DNA from: a virus
Strand: one strand, 5' to 3'
Length of the DNA: 18,188 nucleotides
Virus record (IMG/VR): IMGVR_UViG_3300045988_030933
Coordinates: 1-18,188 of that record
Part shown: positions 106 to 18,188 of the stretch, in pieces
Position numbering within the stretch: position 1 is the stretch's first letter
How the letters are laid out: every line of letters starts with the position of its first letter
Made by a program: the position numbers and the translations under genes
The notes under the pieces: model-generated
The model's input: the letters and a program-made list of their open reading frames with translations, nothing else
Database searches by the model: none
Told to the model about the DNA's origin: nothing

Positions 106-134
106 GTTTATTACCTAGGGGCTTATTTTATGCT
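106..134 (-). terminator. Left subterminal hairpin, probable terminator of the leftward operon
   Basis: AAGCCCCTAGG-tttatta-CCTAGGGGCTT forms an 11-bp perfect stem ending 6 nt past the endolysin stop. On the minus strand the tail is UUAUCAUU (weak U-tract); on the plus strand it is ATTTTAT. A near-copy sits at the right end. Confidence 0.6.
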
Positions 135-140
135 GTCAGT

Positions 141-818: not shown

Positions 819-819
819 G

Positions 820-1191
820 TCAGTTCTCCTTCTTATGTTTGGGGGTATTGTTCTGTGCGAATACGTTCATAAATGGTGCATCCGCCAGCTCGGGGTTGAT
901 GGCGGTAATGTTTTCAAGGATTGAGGTGAGTTCGATCAGGCTAATGCCGCCTACGGTGCAAACGAACACGCTGACCGGCAATCCAAGGTCTACGTGTAGG
1001 TTAATCATGTCCACAAAATATGCCACCAAAGTAAGCATGAGATATGCGAACTTATGCCATAAACCTTCTCGCATTTTTTGTGAGCTAAGCGTGTCGTTGA
1101 GTATGGCTTTGGCAAGTCCGGTAATGTAGTCTACGATGATGAAAAAGACTACTGCAAACACACACCACACGTCGGTTGTGGTCATTGTCAT
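820..1191 (-). CDS. Holin (phi29 gp14 / phage_holin_4_1-like)
   Basis: 123 aa with hydrophobic segments VWCVFAVVFFIIVDYI, FAYLMLTLVAYFV and VSVFVCTVGGISLI. It shows the DYITG...SILEN pattern and a charged tail KHKKEN. An AGGAGG RBS lies 7 nt upstream. It is adjacent to the endolysin. Confidence 0.8.
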   Translation of the reverse strand: MTMTTTDVWCVFAVVFFIIVDYITGLAKAILNDTLSSQKMREGLWHKFAYLMLTLVAYFVDMINLHVDLGLPVSVFVCTVGGISLIELTSILENITAINPELADAPFMNVFAQNNTPKHKKEN

Positions 1192-1203
1192 TACTATTGC
1201 CTC

Positions 1204-2271: not shown

Positions 2272-2286
2272 GTCCGCTCACCTCCT

Positions 2287-2326
2287 AAAATAACGGGGCG
2301 TAACGTCATGACCACCATTACGCCCC
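2287..2326 (-). terminator. Terminator-like hairpin + U-tract in the leader of the ATPase gene
   Basis: On the minus strand GGGGCGTAA-(14 nt)-TTACGCCCC forms a 9-bp stem. It is followed by GTTATTTTAGGAGG, meaning the U-tract runs straight into the SD of the ATPase gene. Confidence 0.55.
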
Positions 2327-2375
2327 TGTTGGTTACGGTCGGCTCAAGGGAAGTTATCACATGCCGACATCGATT

Positions 2376-2384
2376 ATTATACCA
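2376..2384 (-). promoter_or_regulatory. Extended -10 promoter (TGGTATAAT) upstream of the ATPase-holin-endolysin cassette
   Basis: The minus strand reads TGGTATAAT just after the tail-lysin stop (2389). There is no recognisable -35. The format matches the other intergenic promoters in this genome. Confidence 0.45.
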
Positions 2385-2388
2385 CACT

Positions 2389-3600: not shown

Positions 3601-3625
3601 ACTCTTATTATAAGAGTATGGCTAT
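3593..3625 (-). promoter_or_regulatory. 33-nt perfect palindrome (15-bp stem, 3-nt loop) covering the tail-lysin start codon
   Basis: The minus strand reads ATAGCCATACTCTTA-taa-TAAGAGTATGGCTAT followed by TACTTTTGAT. The 3' arm contains the ATG (3600-3598) and the only weak SD (AAGAG). Confidence 0.6.
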
Positions 3626-3677
3626 GTAGGTCGGTTGAATCAGTTTGCCTCTGAAGTGTGCCCCCCTATAGGGCTTG

Positions 3678-5378: not shown

Positions 5379-5542
5379 TGGTTGGCTCCTTTGATTTCGC
5401 GGATAAGGGTTTCCAGCTGGTTGATTTTTTTATCGATAATACGCATTGCCTCATTGTACCCATCCCGCAAGTCCATAGGCGTATCATCCGTGTAGAGAGG
5501 CAGTGCGAGGTGTCGTGTCCTCTTGTATGTGTCATTGTTCAT
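5375..5542 (-). CDS. 55-aa protein paralogous to the tailspike N-terminal anchor
   Basis: MNNDTYKRTRHLALPLYTDDTPMDLRDGYNEAMRIIDKKINQLETLIREIKGANQ. It has about 18/34 identities to residues 8-41 of the 566-aa protein. The ORF-track start at 5599 is a GTG, so the ATG at 5542 is preferred. The stop overlaps the tailspike ATG. Confidence 0.55.
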   Translation of the reverse strand: MNNDTYKRTRHLALPLYTDDTPMDLRDGYNEAMRIIDKKINQLETLIREIKGANQ

Positions 5543-6059
5543 TGTTGTTCGTTCTTTCTCGTGGGGTGACTCTCGGCTCTTCGTTTCCGAAAATATCACG
5601 ATTGCCTACAACCGCCCATGTGATGCAGTCATGTTGCGCGGCCTGGGCTGCTGTCATGGTTGCCATCTGATCTACCCGTGCGCCGAATACGGCCAGTTCG
5701 CGGTACATGTCACGATCGGTGTTTTTGGAATCCTCATACCGTCCCGTGGTCGGATTATAGGTGAGCGCCGACGTTTGATACTGGTCCACCTTTTTCGCAA
5801 GATCATCCAAGGCGGTATCAACCGAGGTTTGCCATGCTGCGATTCCGGCGAGGACCTTATCGATCGCTTCAATGTCGGCATTTTCGTCTTTGGCGAGATT
5901 ATCCAACTGTTCGCGCAGCTGGTCCAAGTGTTCGGCCACTTCCTGCACGTAGCCGAGCACGGTGAGCGTGTCGCGGTATGAGAATGGCTGAACCGTCGTG
6001 AAATACCGTTGTCTTGGGTCGATGTCCAAGGGGGCGGCGCACATGTTGATTCCGTCCAT
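5532..6059 (-). CDS. Putative fibre/appendage-associated structural protein (coiled-coil)
   Basis: 175 aa. PFSYRDTLTVLGYVQEVAEHLDQLREQLDNL resembles the N-terminal attachment plus coiled-coil region of phage fibre and minor structural proteins. RBS is TTGGAGGATTT-ATG. It lies between the lower collar and the tailspike. Confidence 0.45.
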   Translation of the reverse strand: MDGINMCAAPLDIDPRQRYFTTVQPFSYRDTLTVLGYVQEVAEHLDQLREQLDNLAKDENADIEAIDKVLAGIAAWQTSVDTALDDLAKKVDQYQTSALTYNPTTGRYEDSKNTDRDMYRELAVFGARVDQMATMTAAQAAQHDCITWAVVGNRDIFGNEEPRVTPRERTNNNEQ

Positions 6060-6091
6060 AAATCCTCCAATCTGTCTTTTTCAAGTATACT

Positions 6092-6904
6092 CTAGTGTCC
6101 GAGATTGTAGGCGAGACTCGTGCTGTAGAGTTGCGGAACATTGGTCATGTTGTCGCCACTGCCCCAAAGCCCCAAAAAGAGACCTTCCAGCGAGTTGATT
6201 ACCATCATGTCGACATTGAGCATGGTATTACGCCAGTCAAGCAAAAGCTGTGACTGTGAACCGCTGGTGCCGAGCGTATGCGACACACTATTGCCCTTAT
6301 CGGAAGAATGCGCATAATCCGTATTGCTGGTGCTGGTCGCGGTGGCCGAACTATCCTGCTGCGTGCTCGTATGCGTGTTGCCGGTCGAATCTGTCTGCGA
6401 CGCGGTTGTGGCGTATTTGCGAAAATCGTCGATACGGGTCTGCGGAAATTCGCTGTTGAACGTCATGCTGGAATTGTCCGCCTTGGTGTCGGACGTGCTG
6501 TTTGCCGTGGATTCGTTGGATTGCGTGCCCGAAGACCTGCCGGAAGATTCGTTAATGCTGGTCGAGTCCATCTCCTGCCGGATATCGGACGTGATGAAAG
6601 GGTCGAATTTACGTTGCGCAGATAAATATAATTGGTTGAAATAGTCCATTTGTTCGCGCATGGTACGCCCCAAATAAAAGACGAACATTTGCGGCGTTTC
6701 TGAACCGATTTCACGTAATGCGTAGTGGGCTACGATTTTCTCATTCAACTTCGCCCTATAGTTTTCGTCAAAAATCGGATAATAAAATGAACTCAAATGT
6801 AGTTTTTCGTCCGTATTAAATCCACGGTCAATCAGATTGCCCAAGGTCAACGTGTAATCTGCCATACTGTCCTTGATGGCGTACATGCTCAGGTCCTGTG
6901 TCAT
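6092..6904 (-). CDS. Lower collar protein (phi29 gp11-like)
   Basis: 270 aa. FYYPIFDENYRAKLNEKIVAHYALREIGSETPQMF...YFNQLY matches the lower-collar family pattern. There is an ATGA overlap with the portal stop and an AGGAGGAAG RBS. The central part is an S/T/N/Q-rich tract. Confidence 0.78.
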   Translation of the reverse strand: MTQDLSMYAIKDSMADYTLTLGNLIDRGFNTDEKLHLSSFYYPIFDENYRAKLNEKIVAHYALREIGSETPQMFVFYLGRTMREQMDYFNQLYLSAQRKFDPFITSDIRQEMDSTSINESSGRSSGTQSNESTANSTSDTKADNSSMTFNSEFPQTRIDDFRKYATTASQTDSTGNTHTSTQQDSSATATSTSNTDYAHSSDKGNSVSHTLGTSGSQSQLLLDWRNTMLNVDMMVINSLEGLFLGLWGSGDNMTNVPQLYSTSLAYNLGH

Positions 6905-7845
6905 CGTTCGTCTTCCTCCTTGTTTCCGTCCACGTCCAGTAGACCGCCGGACGTGGTATCATTCCATTCGATGCCGATAGGGTATCCCGAGTCGGCCATT
7001 TGCGGCCACAGGCGGTTAATCGTATCGCACGCCTGCTGCCTTGCTTTGAGATAGCTTAGGCGGAAAACGTTCGTACGGCTATTGCCTGCCGTCACTTCCG
7101 ATTCGAGCAGTCGCTCCTTCTTTTCGGTTGTCGAGTTGTCAATTCCAAGATAATTGACGAGTTCATTCCACACCTGCGTTTTCGTCGTGATGATCTTATC
7201 AGCCAAAAAGGGGGTGACGTTGGGGAAGGTCTGGAACATGCCGGTAATGTCCGCCGAATCGTACGTGTAAATATAGGGGTCACCGTCTTCTCGCGCTTTC
7301 ATCAAATTCTGCGCGGTGAGCTTGTTGGTTTCAGACGTGGCGATAATCAACGGAACGCTAATGTTATCCAGATTGACGTCTAAGGCGCGGTCTGCGACGG
7401 CAAGTCGTGTCGCATAATTCCACATGACGTCAATCATGGTGCACCTGAGCTGATTATCCCAAATGGGCACGCATTCCTTGCTCCCGATCTGCGAGTGGGA
7501 ATAATTCGTCGCCACGGGCTGAAACGATGTCGGATTATTGTAGTTATTGACGCCACCGATGTTGCCGGAAGTGACCATAAAACGGTTGACCCCCTTGCGT
7601 TTATCGGGGAAAAACAGCGCGAGACCGTTTTCGAACAGCGTCAATTCCAAATATCTTTCGTCAATGTACGGCGGGAGGTTAATCCACTTAAACCGACTTA
7701 CGGCCAGCATTTCAATAAGCTTCATATACTGGTTGATACGTAAGCTTTGCCGCATTTCGGGGAGGTTCAGGTTACCCCACATCGAACCCAAGACGCTCTG
7801 ATTGTCCCAGTGCGCGGCCTTGCGAGCATTATTGCGTTTACCCAT
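6901..7845 (-). CDS. Portal / upper collar connector (phi29 gp10-like)
   Basis: 314 aa from MGKRNNARK. RFKWINLPPYIDERYLE and VWNELVNYLGIDNSTTEKKERLLESEVT...YLKARQQACDTINRLW align closely with recalled phi29 gp10 (FEWENLPPTIN..., [28 protein letters not shown]...REEACEKINELY). The ORF-track start at 7881 lies in the loop of the upstream terminator hairpin, so the ATG at 7845 with an AGGACGG RBS is preferred. Confidence 0.9.
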   Translation of the reverse strand: MGKRNNARKAAHWDNQSVLGSMWGNLNLPEMRQSLRINQYMKLIEMLAVSRFKWINLPPYIDERYLELTLFENGLALFFPDKRKGVNRFMVTSGNIGGVNNYNNPTSFQPVATNYSHSQIGSKECVPIWDNQLRCTMIDVMWNYATRLAVADRALDVNLDNISVPLIIATSETNKLTAQNLMKAREDGDPYIYTYDSADITGMFQTFPNVTPFLADKIITTKTQVWNELVNYLGIDNSTTEKKERLLESEVTAGNSRTNVFRLSYLKARQQACDTINRLWPQMADSGYPIGIEWNDTTSGGLLDVDGNKEEDER

Positions 7846-7856
7846 AATCACCGTCC

Positions 7857-7893
7857 TAAAAATAATGGAGAGAGTTACCATGCTCTCTCCATT
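7857..7893 (-). terminator. Intrinsic terminator between tail-knob and portal genes
   Basis: On the minus strand AATGGAGAGAG-catggtaa-CTCTCTCCATT forms an 11-bp perfect stem. It is followed by ATTTTTAGGACGG. Confidence 0.7.
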
Positions 7894-7901
7894 ATATCCA
7901 A

Positions 7902-10142
7902 TCAGTACGAGATACCGGCCAGTGGCGCATTGTCCGCATAGTCGGTGACGCCGATCTTGTCGGGGTCAGTCCATACGGTCACGCCGGACTCAAAAATACC
8001 CTTGACGGTCAATCGGTATTCTTCCGGACACGTCGAGCTACGCACATACAACTCGTGCAATTTCCAATACGTGAAATTGCTCATGGCCATAAGATTCTGC
8101 GGCAATTGCATAAATCGCTGCACATAGTAGCCGTACCTTAACCACACTTCCCCGATGGCCTGCATGGCTGCGGGTGGAATCTGCCGGAAACGTACCATGA
8201 CGCCGATCAGCCCATTGGCCAAATTGAATGCGTCACCGCCCAACGCGCCGGACGTGGTAGGGGGCACTGTCTGTGTCTGCTGCACTTGGGCGTTGATGCC
8301 GGCGATCGTGTTTTCATAATCGCCTTGCGCCGTGGCCTGCGCAAGCTGTTTGTTCATATCGGCTAGCTGCATGGTCTGCTGGTTGCCCAGGTTGGTTTGC
8401 GCAAGTGAGTAGGCGTTAGCCTGTGAGGTGGTTGCGGCATTGGTGGCAAACGTGTTCGAAAGTGCTTGACTATTGCTGGATACACTATTGTCATAACTTT
8501 GCTGGTTCGCCCATGCGCCAATGGCGGTTCCCGCAATAGCGCCCACCGCACCCCCCACATTGCCGGATGCGAGCGAGCCGATGGCGTTGGCGGCACCTGA
8601 CCCTACCGTGTTGATCTGGTTCATACGATTGCTGAAACTCAGGTTTTTCAAGGTCAGATCGGAGGACATTTGAGCGCTTTGATTGTTGATCGACATCATG
8701 GCATTGCGGTTCGCGGTGCCGAGCTTGTTTTGCTCGCTCGCATACTGCGTTCCGACTTGTGCTTGGGCGTAGGCGTTGTTGATGCCCATCTGGGTTTTCT
8801 GATACCCCCAATCCGCGCTTTGCCGTGCGTATTGGCGTGTGTAGGCACTGTTCGCAAGCGCCAAGGCTGACCCGTTGTTGACGGACATGAACGTTGGAAA
8901 ATTGGTGATGCCAAATGATGCGTTCAGCATTTCGCCCGTATCGATCGGCAATCCCTTGCCGTCCGGCAATGGTTGGCGGTCGCCCAAGTTTCCCGCATGA
9001 TATCCTCTCGCGTAAAAATTCAGGCGAGGAGACGGGGGCGCATAATTCCATGTCTCCCTGATAATCAGGTCCGCGCTCGGTATCTGCTCAGGCTCATACG
9101 TGATCACCGTACCATTAAGGCACGAGCATTCGACATACGCATAGGGGGCAGTAAGGAATTTCTTCAAATATTTATATCGTTCGGGCAAAGTGAAAGCGTC
9201 GCGGAAATTCTTCAGGCTGATAATGTCCGTGTAGCGTGCGTTGCTATTGTCGTTCCGCTTGCGCAGTTCCCAGCAATTTCCGGCAAAGCTGACTGAATGG
9301 CCGAACAGTTCCGTCTTTTTCGGTTGACCGTCAAGCAGGGCTTGCGGCAGATGGGGTACGGCGTAGATTCCGCAAATGCCTTGCGTGACCCATGGGGCAT
9401 TCATGCCCTCAGTGAAAAATGTGACAATATCGGCTGGAGTGTCCAAATAGTACATGCTGGTACCGTTGAGCTGGCTTTCGAAAGCGCTGCCGGTGGCGGT
9501 GTTGACTGCCGGATTGTCTTTGGTGCCCGGATCCGCTTCAAGATCGGTGGTGCTTACGATAATCAGCCCATAGGACGTAAATTTCACCCCATCACGTTCG
9601 GCCACGTCCATTAGCGGCTTCCAAGACTCATTCGTGAGCACGGTGCATTTTCCCGTGTCGAGTCCTTCGGGCAGATCGAGATAGGTTTTGCCCCAGTCTT
9701 TCCACGCGTTTTCGTTGGCAACCCCAACATGCCCCCTTTCGACGTAGGCGTTGCCCAGCTGGATATCATGTTGAAAGCTCTGCCACACGTCCAATTGGAT
9801 GTTGAGCTGTGTCGTGTTGGCGTTGATATAGTCGCATGTCTGGACGAAATAATACCAACTGCGGGGGGTATCGAAATCGTAGTCGTTCGTTGCGATCAGA
9901 TAATTATATTGCGACGCTTGGGCGAAAGGTACCGGCAGTCGTACCGGCAGTCCGTATTTGGCCATGGTGCAGTCGGTAAATTCGATGCCATTCAAACGGT
10001 CGAAATACTCTTTTTGAGACTGTCCATCCCATTTGACAATATCCCTATACCCCATATCCCATGGCACGTTGCACAGCTTGAATCGCGTGTTTGGCGTCCA
10101 TTTAGCATAGCTGAAATTGATGGGCAGATCGTTTGCGCTCAT
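7902..10142 (-). CDS. Tail knob / distal tail tube protein (phi29 gp9-like) with large low-complexity insert
   Basis: 746 aa. The N-terminal FKLCNVPWDMGYRDIVKWDGQSQKEYF resembles the gp9 N-terminal pattern. Its position between capsid and portal matches phi29. RBS is AGGAGGACTTT-ATG. Residues about 420-645 are Q/N/A/S-rich with a Gly/Ala hydrophobic core. Confidence 0.65.
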   Translation of the reverse strand: MSANDLPINFSYAKWTPNTRFKLCNVPWDMGYRDIVKWDGQSQKEYFDRLNGIEFTDCTMAKYGLPVRLPVPFAQASQYNYLIATNDYDFDTPRSWYYFVQTCDYINANTTQLNIQLDVWQSFQHDIQLGNAYVERGHVGVANENAWKDWGKTYLDLPEGLDTGKCTVLTNESWKPLMDVAERDGVKFTSYGLIIVSTTDLEADPGTKDNPAVNTATGSAFESQLNGTSMYYLDTPADIVTFFTEGMNAPWVTQGICGIYAVPHLPQALLDGQPKKTELFGHSVSFAGNCWELRKRNDNSNARYTDIISLKNFRDAFTLPERYKYLKKFLTAPYAYVECSCLNGTVITYEPEQIPSADLIIRETWNYAPPSPRLNFYARGYHAGNLGDRQPLPDGKGLPIDTGEMLNASFGITNFPTFMSVNNGSALALANSAYTRQYARQSADWGYQKTQMGINNAYAQAQVGTQYASEQNKLGTANRNAMMSINNQSAQMSSDLTLKNLSFSNRMNQINTVGSGAANAIGSLASGNVGGAVGAIAGTAIGAWANQQSYDNSVSSNSQALSNTFATNAATTSQANAYSLAQTNLGNQQTMQLADMNKQLAQATAQGDYENTIAGINAQVQQTQTVPPTTSGALGGDAFNLANGLIGVMVRFRQIPPAAMQAIGEVWLRYGYYVQRFMQLPQNLMAMSNFTYWKLHELYVRSSTCPEEYRLTVKGIFESGVTVWTDPDKIGVTDYADNAPLAGISY

Positions 10143-10152
10143 AAAGTCCTCC

Positions 10153-10191
10153 TAAAAATAATAGGTGTGGATAAAGTCTATCCACACCTAT
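10153..10191 (-). terminator. Intrinsic terminator after the major capsid gene
   Basis: On the minus strand ATAGGTGTGGATA-gactt-TATCCACACCTAT forms a 13-bp perfect stem. It is followed by TATTTTTAGGAGG, which runs into the tail-knob SD. Confidence 0.75.
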
Positions 10192-10212
10192 TTTACCGGT
10201 TGTCACCCAATG

Positions 10213-11931
10213 TCAGGCGGCGGTGACGGTGATCTGTGCCGTCCCCTCCGCTCCTGCAAACTTTGCGGTGACGTTGGCCGCTCCTGCGCCGGTTCCGGTC
10301 AATACGCCGTTAGGGGTGATGGTCGCGTGCTGGTCTACCGTCCACATGGCGAGATTGGTCACGTCCGCGGTGTTGCCGTCCGTCTTGGTGGCAATGGCCT
10401 TGAGCGCGATATGCTCGTTAACCTTGACCGCCTTTTCGCCATGAATCTCAATGGATTCGATGGCTCCCGTCTTCCAGCCGCCGAGCCAAGCGCCGACAAC
10501 CGGAACGGACAATGCGGCGGAAACCGTCTGGTCGATCTCAGGATGGGCGGGGTTGATGTAGGTTGCCTGAGCGGTTACCTTGAGGATTTCGGCGGTTTCG
10601 TCGAGGCCGCAACGCAGAATACCCCCGTTGTCGATCGAGGTGAACTGGGAGGTCGCGCCCTCAACCTTGTATTCGATGCCGACTGGCTGGAACGACGCCT
10701 CATTCTTGTTATCACTGGCAATAACGGATTCGACCTGCACGAGATCGCCACGCGACACGTTTTCGGGGGTGATGGCAGACTGTCCGTACTTGCGTACGCG
10801 CAGCGTAAATTCCGGCTTCGAGGTGGTGAGCGTATCCGGCAACGTCACGGACTCAGAGGAGCCTTCGCCCGTCCAAAACAGCACGGCATTCGCAAACGGG
10901 TTAGGGGTAATGGAACCCCTGTGCTTGTAGAAGATGTTGCGGGTTCCGTCGATGGGGTTGACGGGGGAGTTCGTCGTTTCGAGCATTTCATCCCAGCAGA
11001 AGAAGAAGTCTTCGGTGGTGAGCACGGCCTGTACCTTGCCGCCGGCACCACCGATACCGAACATATCCTCCGGAATTGGAATGATGCGGTAGGGGACGTT
11101 GACCTTGTCGATGTTAAAGGCTGCGGCCAATGCTTCGACGTTGAGCGCTGCGATCACCTGTGGCGTGGCGAAGAGGATTGCTTCGGAATCTCGCCATGGG
11201 GTAACCCACGACATGGCGTTATAGCGTGGCATGGCCGACATTGGAGACGCCTTGAGTTCGTTGGCGGTCTGCTGGATAAGGCGCAAGAGGTTTTTCGCGT
11301 CCGCTTCGGTGGAGTCAGCCGCGCCAACGTCCTTGGTGTGGACTCGATAGAAACCGCCCTTGCGCGCGTACTCGGCGAAGCACTGGGTTTTCATTAGGTA
11401 CATATCATTACGGTCAGACAAGATCGGCGCGTTCATGATTTCCGCGATATAATCCGCCATGCCGCTTTCGCCGTCGAATGCCGTCAACAGCGCATCTTCC
11501 GGGATGGTGACGGGGTAGTAGTGGTCGAAAGTAAGGGGGTGGAATACGGAAGCGGTCGGCAGCGAGTAACGTCCGTAAACGTCGTCCCCCAAGTATTCCT
11601 TGCTGAAATTGCGGGTGCGTGCCTTGACTAGGCCAACTGCGGCCTGTTCATAAGTGCTGCCGTAACGCTTGAGGGTGCGTGGGGAGCCGATCAGCTTGAG
11701 CGGGTCATCCCAGTCCGCATGTTGGATGTACAGGCCGATCAAACGCTGGATAAGCACCCCTGTGAATTCGTCGCGCAAGTACGGGAAGTTGCGCATGGTG
11801 TCCACGGCGTTACGGATGTTGCCTTGCGTGGCGCTCGGGATACGCACCTGAAACTGTGGGGAGGTTGCGTTTCGGACGGCGTTGAAGATTTCAACGTCAC
11901 CTTTACCGGCCAACGGTCGAATATTAGACAT
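10213..11931 (-). CDS. Major capsid protein with C-terminal Ig-like (Big_2-type) domains
   Basis: 572 aa placed directly after the scaffold gene, with a TAGGAGA RBS. The C-terminal part (...LKVTAQATY... and ...VLTGTGAGAANVTAKFAGAEGTAQITVTAA) has typical bacterial Ig-like group 2 endings. phi29 gp8 also carries a BIG2 domain. Confidence 0.8.
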   Translation of the reverse strand: MSNIRPLAGKGDVEIFNAVRNATSPQFQVRIPSATQGNIRNAVDTMRNFPYLRDEFTGVLIQRLIGLYIQHADWDDPLKLIGSPRTLKRYGSTYEQAAVGLVKARTRNFSKEYLGDDVYGRYSLPTASVFHPLTFDHYYPVTIPEDALLTAFDGESGMADYIAEIMNAPILSDRNDMYLMKTQCFAEYARKGGFYRVHTKDVGAADSTEADAKNLLRLIQQTANELKASPMSAMPRYNAMSWVTPWRDSEAILFATPQVIAALNVEALAAAFNIDKVNVPYRIIPIPEDMFGIGGAGGKVQAVLTTEDFFFCWDEMLETTNSPVNPIDGTRNIFYKHRGSITPNPFANAVLFWTGEGSSESVTLPDTLTTSKPEFTLRVRKYGQSAITPENVSRGDLVQVESVIASDNKNEASFQPVGIEYKVEGATSQFTSIDNGGILRCGLDETAEILKVTAQATYINPAHPEIDQTVSAALSVPVVGAWLGGWKTGAIESIEIHGEKAVKVNEHIALKAIATKTDGNTADVTNLAMWTVDQHATITPNGVLTGTGAGAANVTAKFAGAEGTAQITVTAA

Positions 11932-11951
11932 TATATTATCTCCTAACTATT

Positions 11952-12233
11952 TTAGTCGAACAAATCTTCGATGGACTCTTGCGTTTCGTCGCCGTCACCG
12001 TCATTGTCGGACGGTGCGGGGTCAGTGTATCCGAGCGTGTCCATCATGGCCTTGAGTGCGGCCAATTCCTTTTCGATCGAGTCAAGTCGCGCGCTCACGT
12101 CCGGTTCGGACGGTTCCGGTTCCCGCTCAGGCTCTTTCGGCTTGGTTCCATCATCGACGGTTTCAGTCCGCTTCTCTTCTTCGGTAGGCGGCGGGGTGGT
12201 GTTTTCGTCGCTCTCATTGTTTGGGTCTGCCAT
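11952..12233 (-). CDS. Putative scaffolding protein (gp7-like)
   Basis: 93 aa, highly acidic and P/E-rich, with a helical segment ARLDSIEKELAALKAMMDTL. It lies immediately upstream of the capsid gene and is the first gene after the late promoter. RBS is TAGGAGC. Confidence 0.55.
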   Translation of the reverse strand: MADPNNESDENTTPPPTEEEKRTETVDDGTKPKEPEREPEPSEPDVSARLDSIEKELAALKAMMDTLGYTDPAPSDNDGDGDETQESIEDLFD

Positions 12234-12268
12234 GCAAGCTCCTATCTATCGGCAATGTTTTCACCAAA

Positions 12269-12277
12269 ATTATATCA
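12269..12277 (-). promoter_or_regulatory. Late promoter, extended -10 (TGATATAAT)
   Basis: The minus strand reads TGATATAAT immediately after the terminator U-tract. It sits about 36 nt upstream of the scaffold ATG. Confidence 0.6.
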
Positions 12278-12288
12278 TGTGACGGGAG

Positions 12289-12319
12289 AAATAAAATGAC
12301 CCTCCAATCACGGAGGGTC
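12289..12319 (-). terminator. Intrinsic terminator ending the early/replication transcription unit
   Basis: On the minus strand GACCCTCC-gtgatt-GGAGGGTC forms an 8-bp GC-rich perfect stem. It is followed by ATTTTATTT. Confidence 0.8.
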
Positions 12320-12456
12320 TGAATCGTCCTATCAGAGCGCAAAAGTGATGATCGTAGGGCACTACCGCCACGATAGCGATTCCATGGTTGGCGGCATTCT
12401 CAGCCGTGGCAGTCCATCCTATGTTGCTCCCAGTCGAAAATCGACGCTCACAAGAC
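12290..12456 (-). ncRNA. Candidate structured small RNA, possible prohead/packaging RNA (pRNA) analogue
   Basis: It has its own extended -10 (12471-12463) and its own terminator (12319-12289). A 12-bp closing helix forms between 12456-12445 and 12339-12326. An internal 8-bp helix pairs 12412-12405 with 12372-12365, and further small hairpins are present. It has the same position relative to the TP and DNAP genes as the phi29 pRNA. The only ORF here (65 aa) is rich in rare-looking ATA/GGA/CGA codons and reads through the terminator and the late promoter. Confidence 0.4.
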
Positions 12457-12462
12457 ATAACT

Positions 12463-12471
12463 ATCATAGCA
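12463..12471 (-). promoter_or_regulatory. Extended -10 promoter (TGCTATGAT) for the candidate small RNA
   Basis: The minus strand reads TGCTATGAT and overlaps the DNAP stop codon. The predicted +1 at about 12456 coincides with the first base of the closing helix. Confidence 0.45.
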
Positions 12472-13915
12472 TAACCATTGTCCCGTAATCGTCCTTGACT
12501 TGCACGCCATGATGGAATTGCTCATACGGGATAGGTTGGGAGAACATGTTTCCGGACATGCAAATATCAACGTCCCCATCATCCTTCCACCCTTGATATC
12601 TATTCATTCCGAGTATGGTCAGTTTTTCGTATCGGGCTGCGATCTTCCATTTGCCCAATTCGGTAGGGTGGATTTCGCATGAGTCCACCGGCTCCCAGCC
12701 GGATAGGATGCACCCGTCCGTGTTCGCATATAAGAGCCGGTCGGAGTTCGCGTGACAGACGGTCATAAGCTTTTTTCTTGCGTAGGCATTCACCCATACG
12801 GGCACGGGGAGAAAATCGGTTTTCAGATTCGATTCCTCTCTCTGTGCGATATCCCAGTCCAAGGTGATACCGTCTTGAGATAAGGGGAGCATGACGGCAC
12901 CTTTGGGTAGACTCGCCATTTTTCCCACAAGCGCATTCATGACAAGTTTTGCCACTTGCCGTTTCTCTCCTGTAGCATTCTGTTTCAGCTCCCCCCATTC
13001 ATCGACAAACGAGCGGAAAAACCCCTTGCTTTGCCGGAATTTCCACCCCATAACATGCCTGTATACGCTCACTTCGTAATTTTCATGGAGCAGTTTTTGG
13101 TCAATGTCTGTCAATACTCTTGTAATATACCCCCTTGTGCTGGTGAGTCGATTGAGTTCATACACGCTACGATTATCTAACAGAAAGGGGTATCCGTTTG
13201 GTTTGAGTTCCGCACGAAACGTAAGTTCATCGCAATGCAACGGCATATCATCATCCTGCTCATACGCACCGTCGTAAGGTTCAGGTAGCCCCCATGGCAA
13301 CCATTCGTCTCGCAATATGCTCGGATACATCGAGTTGCAGTCAACGTCAATGGCCTTACCGTATGCCCCCTCTTTAGCAACCATAAAGCCGCCAACATAA
13401 GCGTCATGCAATGACTTTTTCGTGTCCGATTCGAGTTGCGGGAATTTGTCGTAATACCACTTCCACTCGCCGGACACAAACGCCTCCATACTCGCCCCAC
13501 CGGCTGTGATCTTGCACAGGCCGCGCCGATCGTACTCGCGCAAAATGTTGAGCAGTTGAGTATCAGTCATGGTAAGCTTGCAGTTTTCGCGCAGCAGATT
13601 CGATATGTCGAAAAAGCGTGCGGAATTCTCGCGGTCGATACGGACGGTAAAACTAAAAAATTTGCCCTTTTTGGATACTATCGCGTCCCAGCTCAAATTC
13701 GAATTGTGTTCGCTGTGGGGCAGAGAGTGTACGACATGCGCTATAAACGGGTCAAGTAGATCGGGGTTGGTCATGTAGACGGTGAGTTTGCCGCCCGCCA
13801 TGATGGACGCCAAAAGACGATTGGGTTGGATGACGTCACGCAGCACGGTGCCGTCCGTGCAGCGTATGACGTTATCCATACACCATAATCCAACTCTATT
13901 GTCGCTCACCGTCAT
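12464..13915 (-). CDS. Protein-primed family-B DNA polymerase (phi29 gp2-like), unusually short and divergent
   Basis: 483 aa. AYVGGF plus DVDCNSMYPS corresponds to motif A, KLVMNALVGK to motif B and LLYANTDGCILSG to motif C. GLCKITAGGASMEAF aligns with phi29 GLDRMTAGSDSLKGF. A TPR2-like segment is present before VWVNAYAR. RBS is AAGGGAAG. Confidence 0.9.
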   Translation of the reverse strand: MTVSDNRVGLWCMDNVIRCTDGTVLRDVIQPNRLLASIMAGGKLTVYMTNPDLLDPFIAHVVHSLPHSEHNSNLSWDAIVSKKGKFFSFTVRIDRENSARFFDISNLLRENCKLTMTDTQLLNILREYDRRGLCKITAGGASMEAFVSGEWKWYYDKFPQLESDTKKSLHDAYVGGFMVAKEGAYGKAIDVDCNSMYPSILRDEWLPWGLPEPYDGAYEQDDDMPLHCDELTFRAELKPNGYPFLLDNRSVYELNRLTSTRGYITRVLTDIDQKLLHENYEVSVYRHVMGWKFRQSKGFFRSFVDEWGELKQNATGEKRQVAKLVMNALVGKMASLPKGAVMLPLSQDGITLDWDIAQREESNLKTDFLPVPVWVNAYARKKLMTVCHANSDRLLYANTDGCILSGWEPVDSCEIHPTELGKWKIAARYEKLTILGMNRYQGWKDDGDVDICMSGNMFSQPIPYEQFHHGVQVKDDYGTMVML

Positions 13916-13949
13916 AGTATATAACTTCCCTTGTTATTGTTATTGACCG

Positions 13950-15008
13950 CTACTTTTCCAGTGCGCCCGCCTCCGCTATCCACCGGTCAAATTGCCGTCT
14001 TGAGCGCTGATAGCCCTCACTGTTGCCCTTGAAAATCGACGTGAAGCCGTGTCGAACGGGGTCATACACCGTCCAGTCGAAAACAATACGCGGGGCATCG
14101 GTCTGTTCGATAAAAGCGCGTTTCTGCGCAGCGGATAGGCTGCGGAACCGTTTAAGGCGTTTCGAACCAAGTGAGGTGGCCAAGATTTTTTCGAACACTT
14201 CATAACGTCCGCGACTCATATAGGACGGCCACTCGTGCTCGCCGTACAGGTCTTTACTCTTTTTGCCCGTCCCCTGTTTTTTGGACTTGCGTTTCCGTTC
14301 GGTGCGCAATCCTAATATTTCGGCTGCGTCATGCATTTGCTCAAGCAACTCGTTACGCCGTCCGCTCTCCAATTGGGAACGCACAAACGCTTCGTCGCTC
14401 AATACGTTGGTCATCTGCAAAAAATCAGTGAGTTTTGACGGAATGATCTGATTACGTCCGAAACCCTCTCCGGTGGTACCGGTGATTTCAGATACACGCT
14501 GCTCGTACACGCTGCGTTTCGGCATGGCCTGTTCGCGGTTCCATTCGTTGATTTTGCGTCGTGCCGCATTGATTTTCCGCTGCTGCTGCCGTAAGAGTTT
14601 ACGTCGTTTCGCCACGGGTTCCGCTTCGATCTGCGCGTTCGTGATGGGCGTGCGTTGGGCGAACATAATGTCTTTTTTCGTCGGCTTTTCCGCGGCGGTG
14701 GCATGGTATGGTGTGTTTTTCGCTGCCGCTATGGTCTGTTTTTTCTGCCGCTCCCACTCTTTGCCTAAGGTTTTCGCGATATTGACTAGTTGCTTGTCGG
14801 CGGTTTTTGCGAGATTCGTGTGAGAGTATGTGCCAAGTTTGCTAATGTTGCGGGCGGCACGTGCTTCCGCAGCCTGTCTTGCCTTGACGTGCTTGCGTGC
14901 CTTGCTGTCCGCTTTGATGGCTACCGTGCCAATACCGGTGTTGTTGGCGTGAGGGGTGTAGTGTTGACTTGCGACTGCTCGGGATGATTTTCTTTGCTTT
15001 CGTGACAT
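13950..15008 (-). CDS. Putative terminal protein (TP)
   Basis: 352 aa and very basic (MSRKQRKSSR..., KRRKLLRQQQRKINAARRKI, RKRKSKKQGTGKKSK). It lies immediately upstream of the DNAP, as in phi29 gene 3-gene 2. The genome has ITRs. No direct sequence match to phi29 TP was recognised by eye. Confidence 0.6.
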   Translation of the reverse strand: MSRKQRKSSRAVASQHYTPHANNTGIGTVAIKADSKARKHVKARQAAEARAARNISKLGTYSHTNLAKTADKQLVNIAKTLGKEWERQKKQTIAAAKNTPYHATAAEKPTKKDIMFAQRTPITNAQIEAEPVAKRRKLLRQQQRKINAARRKINEWNREQAMPKRSVYEQRVSEITGTTGEGFGRNQIIPSKLTDFLQMTNVLSDEAFVRSQLESGRRNELLEQMHDAAEILGLRTERKRKSKKQGTGKKSKDLYGEHEWPSYMSRGRYEVFEKILATSLGSKRLKRFRSLSAAQKRAFIEQTDAPRIVFDWTVYDPVRHGFTSIFKGNSEGYQRSRRQFDRWIAEAGALEK

Positions 15009-15027
15009 ATGCAGTCCTTAAGATGGC

Positions 15028-15053
15028 GAGAGCACCCCAATTAGGGTGCTCTC
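15028..15053 (-). promoter_or_regulatory. Stable 5'-UTR hairpin ahead of the TP gene
   Basis: GAGAGCACCC-(6 nt)-GGGTGCTCTC forms a 10-bp perfect stem with no U-tract on either strand. It lies between the promoter at 15076-15084 and the TP RBS. Confidence 0.55.
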
Positions 15054-15075
15054 TGTGAACGAACGCTACTTAACG

Positions 15076-15084
15076 ATTATAGCA
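15076..15084 (-). promoter_or_regulatory. Extended -10 promoter (TGCTATAAT) for TP-DNAP
   Basis: The minus strand reads TTGCTATAAT, 3 nt after the SSB-like stop. The 9-mer is identical to the right-end early promoter. Confidence 0.55.
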
Positions 15085-15087
15085 AGT

Positions 15088-15525
15088 TCACTTGGTTTTC
15101 TCTTCGTCCACCGGCTCAATGCTGAAAAACTTGAAGCCACGGCGGGAACGACGTTCCACCACCTTGATAGCAAGCGGTGCCTCCCAAGTGTTCGGCGTTC
15201 CAAAAATGCCGAACATGGTATTCAATCCAGCTGCGAGAGTGGGGGAGGTGGCCGCATACGCCTTATTGTCGTCGGTTACGATGATGACGCGCACGGTATT
15301 GGAGATTTCGCCCGTCTGATCATCCGTCACCTGTACGGCCTGGGCGACGGCATTCACCATGTTCAACGTTTCGTTCAAATGTTCATCCAGCTTTTCGGCG
15401 TTCTGAAGCGCAGAGTAGAGTTTGATCTTACCTTCGCGGGTGGAAGTGTCGATGAAGTGCTGGACGGTGCCGAGTTCGGTGGACTCGGTGTTGAATGCGA
15501 CAAGTGCGGTGTTGGTGTTTTCCAT
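15088..15525 (-). CDS. Putative single-stranded DNA-binding protein
   Basis: 145 aa. The pattern ...VQVTDDQTGEISNTVRVIIVTDDNKAYAATSPTLAAGLNTMFGIFGTPNTWEAPLAIKVVERRSRRGFKFFSIE resembles the lactococcal-phage type SSB family as I recall it. Its position just upstream of TP and DNAP fits a replication module. RBS is AAGGGAAGG. Confidence 0.45.
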   Translation of the reverse strand: MENTNTALVAFNTESTELGTVQHFIDTSTREGKIKLYSALQNAEKLDEHLNETLNMVNAVAQAVQVTDDQTGEISNTVRVIIVTDDNKAYAATSPTLAAGLNTMFGIFGTPNTWEAPLAIKVVERRSRRGFKFFSIEPVDEEKTK

Positions 15526-15584
15526 GATATTACCTTCCCTTAACTATTGTTGTTATTTTATTTTTCAGGCTTATGCCTAAAATC

Positions 15585-15593
15585 TTTTATATC
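15585..15593 (-). promoter_or_regulatory. Extended -10 promoter (TGATATAAA) upstream of the SSB-like gene
   Basis: The minus strand reads TGATATAAA and overlaps the stop of the 104-aa ORF. It is intergenic and AT-rich. Confidence 0.45.
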
Positions 15594-15906
15594 ACATGCC
15601 GTCATTATTTTCAATTTCGGCATGTCGTTTTGTATGCTCTTCGGGATTCCATTCTTGCGGCTCACCAAAAGTCGCATACTTATAAAAAGTCTCCTCATTC
15701 ATAGAGACTTTTTGCGAAAAAACGTGAATAGAGCGCGGAATGAAATTAGGAAACAGTTTCTTCGCGCGAATCGAATATGCGCGCGCGTCCTTAAGTCGCC
15801 CGTCGATGACATGCTCGGCTTCCATGAAATCGCCGTCAACAAGTTCCATGCCCTTGAGCACGGCATAGACGCGCGTGCGAAAAATATCGGTTTTGGTTCT
15901 AGCCAT
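15592..15906 (-). CDS. Hypothetical early protein (104 aa)
   Basis: The ORF-track ATG at 15912 is only 2 nt from GGGAGG. The second ATG at 15906 (MARTKTDIF...) has proper spacing. No recognisable domain. Confidence 0.65.
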   Translation of the reverse strand: MARTKTDIFRTRVYAVLKGMELVDGDFMEAEHVIDGRLKDARAYSIRAKKLFPNFIPRSIHVFSQKVSMNEETFYKYATFGEPQEWNPEEHTKRHAEIENNDGM

Positions 15907-15911
15907 ATGCA

Positions 15912-16430
15912 TTACCTCCCTTGTAGTAAGATTTTTTGCAATTCATCATCATTATACCGTGTCGTGTCCAGTCTGTCAAAATTTTTAAACACTGCAATAA
16001 TGAGATTTTGAGCTTGTGGACTATCAAAGATCGTGCAGCAATCATATGACGTGCACCCTTTGACAGCGCAGACGGCACACCATGCAATCAGATTAGGCGG
16101 GTTGATGGTACCGTCCAAGTATTCCACATCATACGTGCGTGACAGGGCGGCGGAAAAACCGTCCGATATGGTCATGTTCCCGCAAATCTGCGATACGACA
16201 ATTATTGCTTGCGTAAACCATGTGCTAGCCCCGTCGCGCCACAGTTCACATAGCATGTTCACGGCACGGCAGCATGTTTCAAAATCCCCATGCCCCATGT
16301 CATAGCGTTTCAGATTCAGCTCGCGTTTCCGGCCTTTCGTAGCCTTGACAATACGAGGCGATTCCATGATCGCATCATCAAATTTCCTCATGCGATAGAT
16401 CGGGATCCGGTCATTGCCACGGTTAAACAT
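15912..16430 (-). CDS. Hypothetical Cys-rich early protein (172 aa from MFNRGND)
   Basis: The open frame extends to 16472, but the ATG at 16430 has a GAAAGG RBS and only an 8-nt overlap with the upstream small ORF. Cys clusters are CCRAVNMLC and WCAVCAVKGCTSYDCC. No domain recognised. Confidence 0.6.
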   Translation of the reverse strand: MFNRGNDRIPIYRMRKFDDAIMESPRIVKATKGRKRELNLKRYDMGHGDFETCCRAVNMLCELWRDGASTWFTQAIIVVSQICGNMTISDGFSAALSRTYDVEYLDGTINPPNLIAWCAVCAVKGCTSYDCCTIFDSPQAQNLIIAVFKNFDRLDTTRYNDDELQKILLQGR

Positions 16431-16599
16431 AGTAGCGCCTTTCGACCCTGAAGTATGCAATGTTGCGTACATGCGTGGGTACTGCCGCCCACTTGCGAAT
16501 CAGCTCGGCGGCTTTACCGTATGACGTGGCATACCCCACTTCAATAGGGGGTTTATTGCCATGCCTCAAATATGCCAGTGCAACAAACGTTTTGTACAT
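16423..16599 (-). CDS. Possible small early protein (58 aa, below ORF-track cutoff)
   Basis: Hand translation gives MYKTFVALAYLRHGNKPPIEVGYATSYGKAAELIRKWAAVPTHVRNIAYFRVERRYYV. The ATG lies 2 nt after the upstream stop. It fills an otherwise unexplained 130-nt gap in a tightly packed operon. Confidence 0.35.
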   Translation of the reverse strand: MYKTFVALAYLRHGNKPPIEVGYATSYGKAAELIRKWAAVPTHVRNIAYFRVERRYYV

Positions 16600-16601
16600 G
16601 A

Positions 16602-16805
16602 TTAAAATTCCAATCCCTCATTACCTGACTCGGCACCGAGCCACCACATATCAGACCACAAGCCCATACTCGGACACCTCTTCGGCGGTGTAAAAGCGTC
16701 ACCCTTGCGTTTCGCTCCCGCCCAAAACGCACGCAAACGCCAATACGTGTCAGCATAAGCGCAGTCCTTGCACACCCACGAATGCAACCAGCCACGAAAA
16801 TACAT
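16602..16805 (-). CDS. Hypothetical small early protein (67 aa, Trp-rich)
   Basis: The ATG lies 2 nt after the upstream stop. The composition is more protein-like than the overlapping 80-aa frame. No domain recognised. Confidence 0.45.
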   Translation of the reverse strand: MYFRGWLHSWVCKDCAYADTYWRLRAFWAGAKRKGDAFTPPKRCPSMGLWSDMWWLGAESGNEGLEF

Positions 16806-16807
16806 GA

Positions 16808-17053
16808 CTAATCCCTACCCAAGAGTGGCGTGTGTGCGATATCGATAGCGTCCAGCATAAGATCAACCACCTGACTACCATCACCCGCATCATACGCACA
16901 CAAAGCAGTGGCATTACGAAACCCAACAGTAGTACGGAATCGGACGGCATACCTCAGCTCGTACCGTTGGCCGTGAGGACAATACCACAGACGCACGCCA
17001 CCGCCTACAAACGGCGACGCAAACACGGCAACATTCATATCATTCATACACAT
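16808..17053 (-). CDS. Hypothetical small early protein (81 aa)
   Basis: ATG start directly after the stop of the small membrane ORF. No domain recognised. Confidence 0.55.
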   Translation of the reverse strand: MCMNDMNVAVFASPFVGGGVRLWYCPHGQRYELRYAVRFRTTVGFRNATALCAYDAGDGSQVVDLMLDAIDIAHTPLLGRD

Positions 17054-17054
17054 T

Positions 17055-17225
17055 TCAAAAACCCTTTACTGCAAAAGCCAAAACCATAGCCACACTTACT
17101 GCAAGCATGACCAAAAAACAAAACACATCCCGCACGTCACGCTGAGTCTCACGGAACGCAACGGCACATGCCGCGACAAGCAGAATCGCAAACAGAACGA
17201 CAACAATACTCATACACGTCATCAT
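17055..17225 (-). CDS. Small two-TM membrane protein (56 aa, below ORF-track cutoff)
   Basis: Hand translation gives MMTCMSIVVVLFAILLVAACAVAFRETQRDVRDVFCFLVMLAVSVAMVLAFAVKGF. It has two hydrophobic helices separated by a charged loop. Its ATG overlaps the upstream TGA as ATGA. Confidence 0.55.
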   Translation of the reverse strand: MMTCMSIVVVLFAILLVAACAVAFRETQRDVRDVFCFLVMLAVSVAMVLAFAVKGF

Positions 17226-17452
17226 ACCAGCACCACTTTCACCACACCAACCATAGCGCCATCAAGGTCAAACGTGGCATTATCAATATCCACGTTCACA
17301 TCCATACCCGCATAGGCGCTGCGGATATGAGATAGCACGCCGACCAACGACGCTTTCAACGACGTTGTATGAAACATGCCACTAGGCTTCACGCAGTCAG
17401 GCAGAATCTCAAATACCTGAAACCCATCATTGGTGATGATAAAATACCACAT
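17222..17452 (-). CDS. Hypothetical small early protein (76 aa)
   Basis: The ORF-track start at 17470 is a TTG inside TTGAAAGGGAGG. The ATG at 17452 follows the GGGAGG RBS. Confidence 0.6.
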   Translation of the reverse strand: MWYFIITNDGFQVFEILPDCVKPSGMFHTTSLKASLVGVLSHIRSAYAGMDVNVDIDNATFDLDGAMVGVVKVVLV

Positions 17453-17466
17453 ATCAAACCTCCCTT

Positions 17467-17724
17467 TCAATCAATATTCATATTGGTGATATGAATGATC
17501 TGGCGCAACTGTACAATCGCTTCGGACAACTCGCTTAACAATGCGGCATGGTCAGCCAGCGCTTCCACCGGAACGACCTGGCAACTCAAGCGCACGCCAC
17601 CATCCAACACCTCCCCCCCGGCATCAATACGGACATAATCACCAATACAGCCCATCACATGACCGTTGCCATCATCCTTAAGCACACCGTTATAGTGAGC
17701 AGTAAGCGGAATCCTGATTTTCAT
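17467..17724 (-). CDS. Hypothetical small early protein (85 aa)
   Basis: The ORF-track start at 17739 is a TTG inside TTGGAGG. The ATG at 17724 (MKIRIPL...) follows the GGAGG RBS. Confidence 0.6.
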   Translation of the reverse strand: MKIRIPLTAHYNGVLKDDGNGHVMGCIGDYVRIDAGGEVLDGGVRLSCQVVPVEALADHAALLSELSEAIVQLRQIIHITNMNID

Positions 17725-17739
17725 ACGTGAAACCTCCAA

Positions 17740-17982
17740 TCAGTGAATCAAGGCGTCGGATACCGCTTCCGCGATGGTGTCTCCAGTTCCCAAGACAACG
17801 GCGGGGCGGCAATGATCAGCGTAAACGGCATAAAACACATCAACCGCGTCCACCTTACGCCCATCTTCGGTAGTGCGATAGTATGGCGTCTCAACCCTCT
17901 TGACGCAAGCGCGCGCCATCAATTCCCGCACACTCTCGATACTAACGCCAGCTTCCTTTGCGATTTGCTTATAATTTTCCAT
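17740..17982 (-). CDS. First early gene, small protein with possible N-terminal helix-turn-helix
   Basis: 80 aa. NYKQIAKEAGVSIESVRELMARA looks HTH-like. RBS is GGGAGGTAAATAAA-ATG. It is the first ORF after the right-end promoter. Confidence 0.6.
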   Translation of the reverse strand: MENYKQIAKEAGVSIESVRELMARACVKRVETPYYRTTEDGRKVDAVDVFYAVYADHCRPAVVLGTGDTIAEAVSDALIH

Positions 17983-18014
17983 TTTATTTACCTCCCTTGT
18001 AGTCGATATTTTTC

Positions 18015-18023
18015 ATTATAGCA
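18015..18023 (-). promoter_or_regulatory. Right-end early promoter, extended -10 (TGCTATAAT)
   Basis: The minus strand reads TGCTATAAT, about 33 nt upstream of the first early ATG. There is no recognisable -35. Confidence 0.6.
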
Positions 18024-18068
18024 TAAACGAAATTACGACACGCCGTAAAACAAAACAACATAAAAAGC

Positions 18069-18089
18069 CCCTAGGCAATAAACCTAGGG
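18069..18089. other. Right subterminal hairpin, mirror copy of the left one
   Basis: CCCTAGG-caataaa-CCTAGGG forms a 7-bp stem. Read inward from the end it is followed by GCTTTTTATG, as at the left end (GCTTATTTTATG). Confidence 0.7.
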
Positions 18090-18111
18090 ACTTTACTTTA
18101 CGCATTTTCCG

Positions 18112-18188
18112 GCAAACGCTTCCATATCCTCAGCAGGAAACAGAAGCAAACCGTCATCCGTTTCATAAGGCAAAAGGAACAGATACGA
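18112..18188. repeat. Right inverted terminal repeat (ITR-R), 77 bp perfect
   Basis: Exact reverse complement of nt 1-77. Confidence 0.97.

Follow-up and report, generated by a model that had tools for sequence, protein, structure and literature searches.

The window analysed here, the 18,188 nucleotides (nt) of IMG/VR virus record IMGVR_UViG_3300045988_030933 (positions 1 to 18,188), derives from a phi29-like podophage of Bifidobacterium that shows 88.8% identity to Bifidobacterium phage BP1 over 86% of its length. All genes are oriented on the minus strand. The subject of this work is the interval 12289-12471 on the same strand, in which a gene for a structured non-coding RNA of about 168 nt is predicted; the RNA is a candidate for the counterpart of the prohead (packaging) RNA (pRNA) of phage phi29. 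Coordinates refer to the window unless indicated otherwise.

Predicted transcription unit downstream of the DNA polymerase gene

The RNA gene lies at the end of the terminal protein (TP)-DNA polymerase (DNAP) block, between the gene of a type-B DNAP (12464-13915, minus strand; Pfam) and the scaffold/capsid genes, which include that of the Phi29-type major capsid protein (Phi29_MCP; 10213-11931, minus strand; Pfam). The same gap of about 228 nt, bounded by the DNAP gene and by a gene for a small acidic protein upstream of the capsid gene, is present and unannotated in BP1, in BD811P1-3 and in one metagenomic record.

Positions 12289-12471 (minus strand) form a discrete unit made up of an extended -10 box, a structured domain of 131 nt (12456-12326) and an intrinsic terminator (12319-12289). 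The extended -10 promoter TGCTATGAT (12463-12471, minus strand) overlaps the DNAP stop codon, and the predicted RNA start, G+1 at 12456 (minus strand), lies seven nt after TGCTATAAT. The terminator (minus strand) is composed of a GC-rich hairpin (12319-12298) followed by AUUUUAUUU, which ends at 12289. The hairpin was picked up in a terminator scan with nine pairs, six of them G-C, and its stem covaries among relatives (CCCUC/GAGGG versus CCCCG/CGGGG). In a preliminary description of the window, made from the sequence alone, this gap had been read as a separate gene for a non-coding RNA that has its own promoter and terminator and closes the TP-DNAP block. That reading is supported here, and the promoter, start site and terminator proposed for it were all found at the positions given above.

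A second extended -10 box, TGATATAAT (12269-12277, minus strand), follows outside the RNA and is assigned as the promoter of the scaffold-like and capsid (late) genes. The consensus TGNTATRAT occurs six times in the window (2376-2384, 12269-12277, 12463-12471, 15076-15084, 17221-17229 and 18015-18023; all minus strand), on the coding strand in every case and each time at the start of a gene or operon; 1.3 copies were expected, and none of 200 shuffles reached six. As number and placement are beyond chance, TGNTATRAT is plausibly the promoter type of this phage, with a copy of its own in front of the candidate RNA. The six motifs outline early, TP/DNAP, RNA, late and ATPase/lysis transcription units.

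Relatives were gathered by DNAP searches in IMG/VR and in Logan/ENA assemblies, which gave 93 distinct versions of the element; 93 sequences were used for the fold, 91 for the open reading frame (ORF) and hand-fold checks and 86 for the identity profile. A covariance model built in this analysis (R1) detects a single copy in each of 93 genomes, with scores of 96-155 bits. Identity is 0.84 over the RNA, compared with 0.80-0.83 for the flanking genes, and rises to 0.94 in the -10 box of the RNA gene and to 0.97 in the late box. It drops to about 0.50 in the 6-nt spacer after the RNA -10 box and in the linker between domain I and the terminator, a non-conserved stretch of 6 nt after the closing helix. 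Judged from these profiles, conservation has sharp, functional-looking edges exactly where the predicted promoter-RNA-terminator unit places them.

An ORF of 65 codons, from ATG to stop, does exist at 12270-12467. Its ATG lies inside the -10 box and reads ATA in 81 of 91 relatives, so a start codon is present in ten; an in-frame stop occurs within 6 to 45 codons in most relatives, and the length of the region modulo 3 is 0, 1 or 2 in 26, 24 and 41 of them, respectively. The three codon positions are equally variable: identity over the RNA is 0.85/0.84/0.82, without periodicity, whereas the capsid gene gives 0.92/0.96/0.59. The translation has no Pfam match. Codon-like conservation, which the preliminary description had named as an outcome that would speak for this ORF, was looked for and not seen, in line with its statement that the gap holds no convincing coding sequence. 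On these comparative data, protein coding by 12270-12467 is refuted, and the chance that the region encodes the 65-amino-acid protein is negligible.

Comparative fold of the RNA

The RNA is numbered from G1 (12456), nt n being window position 12457-n. Domain I (nt 1-131; 12326-12456, minus strand) is closed by pairing of its 5' and 3' ends, the strands being GUCUUGUGAGCG (12456-12445) and CGCUCUGAUAGGAC (12339-12326). Two helices make up this closure. A1 joins nt 1-5 with 127-131 (5' strand within 12444-12456, 3' strand 12326-12330; 99.4% of cells paired); A2 joins nt 8-13 with 117-122 (5' strand within 12444-12456, 3' strand 12335-12340; 99.8% paired) and shows compensatory changes at 12-118 (GC to AU in 12 sequences) and 11-119 (CG to UA in two). 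The closing helix had been drawn by hand in the preliminary description and is confirmed by this covariation; RNAfold keeps both it and the terminator in the minimum free energy (MFE) and centroid structures of the window RNA (z = -2.15).

The junction is closed by GGG/CCC, nt 26-28 (12429-12431) with 98-100 (12357-12359; minus strand), which is paired in 100% of cells and in which pair 27-99 changes from GC to AU in two sequences. A three-way junction, also foreseen in the hand fold, is thereby formed with a C/E arm and a D hairpin. The C/E arm (nt 34-74; 12383-12423, minus strand) starts with the C helix (nt 34-43 with 66-74), which has 9 bp plus the bulged A37 and compensatory changes in six of its nine pairs. 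It is followed by the CE loop ACUGCCA (nt 44-50; 12407-12413, minus strand), 7 nt on the 5' side only, by the E helix (nt 51-54 with 62-65; 4 bp, pair 53-63 GC to AU in one sequence) and by the E loop UGAGAAU (nt 55-61). The linker GAAU (nt 75-78) leads to the D hairpin (nt 79-97; 12360-12378, minus strand), in which a D helix of 6 bp (nt 79-84 with 92-97; 99.8% of cells paired, four of six pairs compensatory) carries the D loop CGUGGCG (nt 85-91; 12366-12372).

Between A2 and the junction, the small hairpin P2, CGA-UUU-UCG (nt 14-22; 12435-12443, minus strand), corresponds to the GUCGA/UCGAC hairpin of the hand fold. It survives the comparison, with an alternative of equal support: in the first alignment, RNAalifold paired nt 15-22 with nt 103-110, which extends the A helix into a rod with internal loops. 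Each form has one compensatory event, P2 at 15-21 (GC to AU; sequence L081) and the rod at 20-105 (UA to CG; sequence L189).

In the 93 distinct relatives, aligned by the model, 98.1% of cells are standard pairs and 16 of 41 pairs have changed on both sides, which is the kind of compensatory change that the preliminary description had proposed to look for among relatives. All five measures lay above those of all 500 shuffles. When the 3' partners were slid by one to three columns as a control, pairing fell to 34-48%, and an independent MAFFT alignment gave the same picture. On this covariation evidence the structure of domain I is taken to be real. U-G pairs are frequent at fixed positions (e.g. 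4-128, 13-117 and 84-92), and the fold is therefore specific to the minus-strand transcript.

Other elements of the hand fold fared differently. The hairpin GUAG/CUAC is contradicted by A-C or C-A mismatches that appear, uncompensated, in 7 to 17 of 91 sequences; covariation links its 5' half to the D helix, and its 3' half is invariant. The self-complementary CCAUGG is found in only about one quarter of the relatives and is the 3' strand of the C helix, and a functional role for the palindrome is rejected. The complementarity CUGCCACG/CGUGGCGG, drawn as an 8-bp helix, is real; it is not a nested helix, however, because its ends belong to the covariation-supported E and D helices, and it better fits a putative loop-loop contact.

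This contact would comprise 5 bp between the 3' part of the CE loop, UGCCA (U46 G47 C48 C49 A50), and UGGCG of the D loop (U87 G88 G89 C90 G91). All 93 sequences have standard pairs at 46-91, 47-90, 48-89 and 49-88. The bases at 47-90 are GC in 74 sequences, GU in 12 and AU in seven, and A47 is found only with U90 (7 of 19 sequences with U90 versus 0 of 74 with C90; Fisher p = 5e-6, with no correction for relatedness), a combination seen in at least four lineages. The calculated energy of the loop duplex is -5.9 kcal/mol for the 5 bp UGCCA/UGGCG of the window, compared with -2.9 kcal/mol for the 4 bp AACC/GGUU of phi29.

Two further covariations were observed in the C/E arm. The E loop has two main forms, UGAGAAU and UGAAAAC, in which the change of G58 to A is usually accompanied by that of U61 to C (nt 58-61; 12396-12399), with a few sequences (e.g. 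L038 and L073) carrying just one of the changes; a non-canonical pair within the loop or a shared contact may lie behind the coupling. The bulged nt 37 covaries with nt 41 (12416-12420), the combination being A/U in 19 sequences and G/C in 54. As nt 41 also pairs with nt 68, this may reflect a base triple, another register of the C helix or lineage linkage.

Comparison with phi29 pRNA and with other phages

The window fold was compared element by element with the consensus structure of the phi29 pRNA family, RF00044. The C helix has 9 bp plus one 5' bulge in both phi29 and the window, the E helix 4 bp, the uninterrupted 3' strand through E and C 13 nt and the D helix 6 bp. The CE loop is on the 5' side only in both and measures 9 nt in phi29 and 7 nt in the window; the E loop has 6 nt (UUGAGU) in phi29 and 7 nt (UGAGAAU) in the window, with UGA common to both; the junction linker has 3 and 4 nt and the D loop 5 and 7 nt, respectively. 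In both RNAs, the bases complementary to the D loop occupy the 3' end of the CE loop, immediately ahead of the E helix. Both also have a domain I closed by 5'/3' pairing, a three-way junction and a following 3' hairpin domain. The comparative fold is closer to the phi29 blueprint than the hand fold had been.

Size and setting add to the likeness: about 170 nt, a predicted promoter of its own, and a place at the end of the replication-gene block of a phage with a gp10 portal and a gp16 ATPase. The two systems differ in that the 3' domain of the window RNA is a bona fide intrinsic terminator, where phi29 has domain II, and in that the host of the window phage is an actinobacterium. In phi29 the gene is found close to the left end of the genome, past gene 2 and genes 1 to 1C, whereas that of the window lies between the DNAP and scaffold/capsid genes. 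Given this difference in position, the statement of the preliminary description that the layout is the same as in phi29 is loose.

An unannotated gap upstream of the scaffold/capsid genes was also found in the Curtobacterium phages Pize, Ellison17, Ayka, Reje, Thatch, Mantle and Fairywren, in Arthrobacter phage Anjali and in Glutamicibacter phage Voltaire. MFE folding of these gaps gave a long 5'/3' helix, a three-way junction, one arm with a 5'-side internal loop and a short hairpin, and a second hairpin. The loop of the short hairpin reads UUGAAA, UUGAAU, UUGAUU, CUGAAA or GUGAAG, and the loop of the second hairpin complements the 3' end of the internal loop, for example by UUGCA/UGCAA (Ellison17, Ayka), GCAA/UUGC (Pize), CGC/GCG (Fairywren) and CAGCU/AGCUG (Anjali). 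The z-scores range from -4.3 to -5.4 (Voltaire -4.3, Anjali -5.4), and a strong terminator follows each RNA. The predicted pRNA-like RNAs, each followed by the terminator, were located in the individual records at L170 3936-4046, L173 263-372, L174 264-372, L175 527-637, L176 519-632, L177 518-632, L178 514-624, L164 4990-5095 and L172 about 4765-4870. In this set, most elements were assigned to the blueprint by MFE folding and inspection, and covariation was checked for the Curtobacterium A helix only, in which compensatory change is abundant. Compared with the window RNA, these RNAs have longer, more phi29-like A helices and no detectable sequence similarity; the RNA is separated from the DNAP gene by a small ORF, and there is no promoter after the terminator.

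Closer to the window phage are the B. asteroides phages BadAztec1 and BadAargau2, the capsid protein of which is about 36% identical to that of the window phage. As in the window, the DNAP end carries a TGCTATA(G/A)T box and the closing helix reads GUGAGCG...CGCUCAC; the BadAztec-type helix is extended, with compensatory differences (ACAG/CUGU versus GCGG/CCGC), and an E-like hairpin, CGUA-UUAAGU-UACG, is present (RNA regions: L082 12680-12857 and L083 13051-13229, both minus strand). This clade comprises two distinct sequences, with no further relatives in IMG/VR, and it is the closing helix and the hairpin that can be supported there; the interior (CE loop AAACC, E loop UUAAGU, D loop with GGU) was fitted to the blueprint by eye only.

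For the actinobacterial phi29-like Actinomyces phage Av-1 (NC_009643; L165), GenBank holds a misc_RNA feature, "packaging RNA", at 16295-16402. This unverified feature lies near the right genome end and overlaps ORFs of the opposite strand; it was matched by neither RF00044 nor R1, and no supporting analysis was found in the searchable literature.

A candidate packaging RNA and its alternatives

Comparison of relatives firmly supports a discrete, conserved, non-coding and strand-specific structured RNA gene with the blueprint of a pRNA. The RNA of about 168 nt is judged to be, with fair probability, the counterpart of phi29 pRNA in this phage, with a role in DNA packaging. From their sequences, the motor proteins are of the pRNA-dependent type. 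The gp10 connector (portal; 6901-7881, minus strand) was identified by Pfam (PF05352, E = 3e-40), as was the gp16 encapsidation ATPase (1204-2271, minus strand; PF05894, E = 9e-45); a gp9-like tail knob was likewise found on the minus strand (Pfam). The N-terminus of the portal, MGKRNNARKAAH, is basic. The phi29 gp10 binds pRNA through an N-terminal RKR, and the likeness of the two N-termini is used as a lead only. Residues 6-319 of the 332 residues of the ATPase align with phi29 gp16 in the cryo-EM motor structure 7jqq, the reduced C-terminal domain included. These results agree with the earlier recognition of both proteins as clear gp10/gp16 homologues.

According to the proposed mechanism, host RNA polymerase would start at G12456 from the extended -10 promoter and stop at the terminator (12319-12289). 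Nucleotides 1-131 would then fold into the 5'/3' A helix and a three-way junction with two arms, one consisting of the C helix, the one-sided CE loop and the E hairpin, the other of the D hairpin. By analogy with phi29, UGCCA in the CE loop of one molecule would pair with UGGCG in the D loop of the next, so that a ring closes around the empty prohead's portal vertex. The end that bears the junction and the E loop would touch the portal, with its basic N-terminus, and the capsid, while the A helix would point outward and dock the gp16-type ATPase, which itself would have no portal-binding domain; after packaging the RNA would depart. Expression of the RNA, trans pairing into a ring, binding to prohead and ATPase and a requirement in packaging are points that we infer.

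Several results weigh against the assignment as a pRNA. The RF00044 model, which gives 145 bits on phi29 itself, matched neither the whole window at the gathering threshold nor positions 12150-12600 (451 nt) at E <= 10. The Rfam search recommended in the preliminary description was therefore negative even at this E value, and the RNA is not placed in the family by the model. (None of the other Rfam 15 families matched either; just two chance-level matches were obtained, to an miRNA and a CRISPR repeat, with E about 1-2.) R1 misses the syntenic RNAs of BadAztec, Curtobacterium and Arthrobacter phages as well as phi29 pRNA: runs on BadAztec, Anjali, Av-1, phi29, Pize, PineapplePizza and Voltaire, with filters on and off, gave chance-level matches only, so that the case for homology across clades is one of architecture, position and a short loop motif. 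In Microbacterium phage PineapplePizza there is no such gap. The A region of the window RNA is shorter than that of phi29 and has an extra hairpin/junction that is absent there. In single-sequence thermodynamics, judged to be uninformative here, the antisense strand folds as well as the sense strand and the comparative fold lies 12 kcal/mol above the MFE structure (-27.7 versus -40.1 kcal/mol); this gap suggests that the native fold is stabilised by tertiary, intermolecular or protein contacts. As for the complementary loops, the data are equally compatible with additional D-hairpin pairs 85-91 and 86-90 and a UGG triloop, the two loops could pair in cis as a pseudoknot, and a composition-preserving shuffle test of the complementarity was not significant (p = 0.07), although this test is underpowered and also fails for phi29 itself (p = 0.26).

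The main rival takes the element as cis-acting at the early/late boundary: a leader, an attenuator or a processive antitermination element that sets read-through into the late genes or, in a variant, a structure at the 3' end that lends stability to the early mRNA. In that case the two loops would kiss within one molecule and stabilise a three-way-junction fold, as they do in many riboswitch aptamers. The gene is always immediately upstream of the late operon, with the scaffold/capsid genes directly following in every clade examined, a location that would be fitting for a cis-acting leader as well. In Curtobacterium phages, about 25 nt separate the terminator from the scaffold start codon, with a ribosome-binding site alone between them, and late transcription must cross the element; in BadAztec the 12-bp GC hairpin downstream is followed by neither a U tract nor a second promoter, so the RNA would be co-transcribed with the late genes unless processed. 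A closing helix, a three-way junction, kissing arm loops and a terminator upstream of genes are also the classic layout of a transcriptional riboswitch, for example of the purine type. The window RNA differs from such riboswitches, however, in several respects. A near-invariant -10 box (0.97) follows its terminator in the window clade, and the late genes therefore have their own promoter. No alternative antiterminator pairing was seen for the terminator, the stem of which covaries alone while upstream candidates for a competing pairing are invariant, and the non-conserved 6-nt linker separates it from the closing helix. No Rfam riboswitch or leader family matched. The arms are of unequal height, about 10 bp to the CE loop versus 6 bp to the D loop, as in the trans-pairing phi29 pRNA. 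A cis-acting element is considered quite unlikely on balance. Alternatively, the product might act in trans outside packaging, as a regulatory sRNA, as a decoy for a host protein or RNA polymerase or as a replication cofactor, its resemblance to pRNA being convergent or coincidental; its own strong promoter and terminator and its conserved loop and junction nucleotides would suit such a role, three-way-junction RNAs are common, and no sequence-level homology to pRNA was detected by the covariance models. Set against this are the match of helix and loop counts with phi29 pRNA, the loop complementarity in the same place, the shared UGA of the E loop and the presence of the RNA in several phi29-like clades that otherwise share mainly replication and morphogenesis genes. 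No extended single-stranded seed of the kind typical of base-pairing sRNAs stands out. This explanation, too, is held to be unlikely.

Beyond the window phage, prohead RNA might be ancestral and general in phi29-type motors, the RNAs of the Bifidobacterium, Curtobacterium, Arthrobacter and Glutamicibacter phages being true, highly diverged homologues; the chances of this are rated as even. In such homologues, helices C (9 bp), E (4 bp) and D (6 bp) would be retained, along with CE and D loops that pair in trans and an E loop of the UGA type. The window RNA is pRNA-like and comes from outside the Bacillus phages; its genomic position is different, its A region is modified, and it apparently belongs to a wider set, likewise unannotated, in actinobacterial phi29-like phages. 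In all of these phage genomes, the annotation lacks the RNA gene.

To our knowledge, no RNA other than pRNA serves as a structural component of a viral DNA-packaging motor; pRNA is also widely used in RNA nanotechnology. In a 2024 review, pRNA is described as "a unique feature inherent in" phi29 and related Bacillus phages, and a 2016 review agrees, as did the preliminary description in stating that pRNAs are characterised only in Bacillus phages; the exception on paper is the Av-1 feature. Apart from that GenBank note, no report of a pRNA in Bifidobacterium, other actinobacterial or other non-Bacillus phages was found in the searchable literature. According to the structural literature, phi29-like motors attach to the prohead via pRNA, the ATPase's C-terminal domain making almost no contact with the portal, and the pRNA-contacting residues are conserved in the ATPase of a Lactococcus (non-Bacillus) relative. 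If the assignment is correct, the RNAs would be the first pRNAs outside Bacillus phages, present in abundant phages of the human gut, and would close the gap between the "Bacillus-only" reviews and structural work that assumes pRNA in all phi29-like motors. The comparative set would show which RNA features are truly constrained (arm lengths, loop pairing and E-loop motif), would help in asking about the RNA's role in the motor, would make it testable whether pRNA was ancestral or arose late to replace a terminase domain that had been lost, and would offer new self-assembling RNA scaffolds.

At the ends of the window, two near-identical, inverted GC-rich hairpins were noticed, AAGCCCCTAGGTTTATTACCTAGGGGCTT (96-124, plus strand) and AAAGTCCCTAGGTTTATTGCCTAGGGGCTTT (18064-18094, minus strand), each about 100 nt from its end. 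They may belong to terminal inverted repeats of a protein-primed linear genome or be inward-facing terminators.

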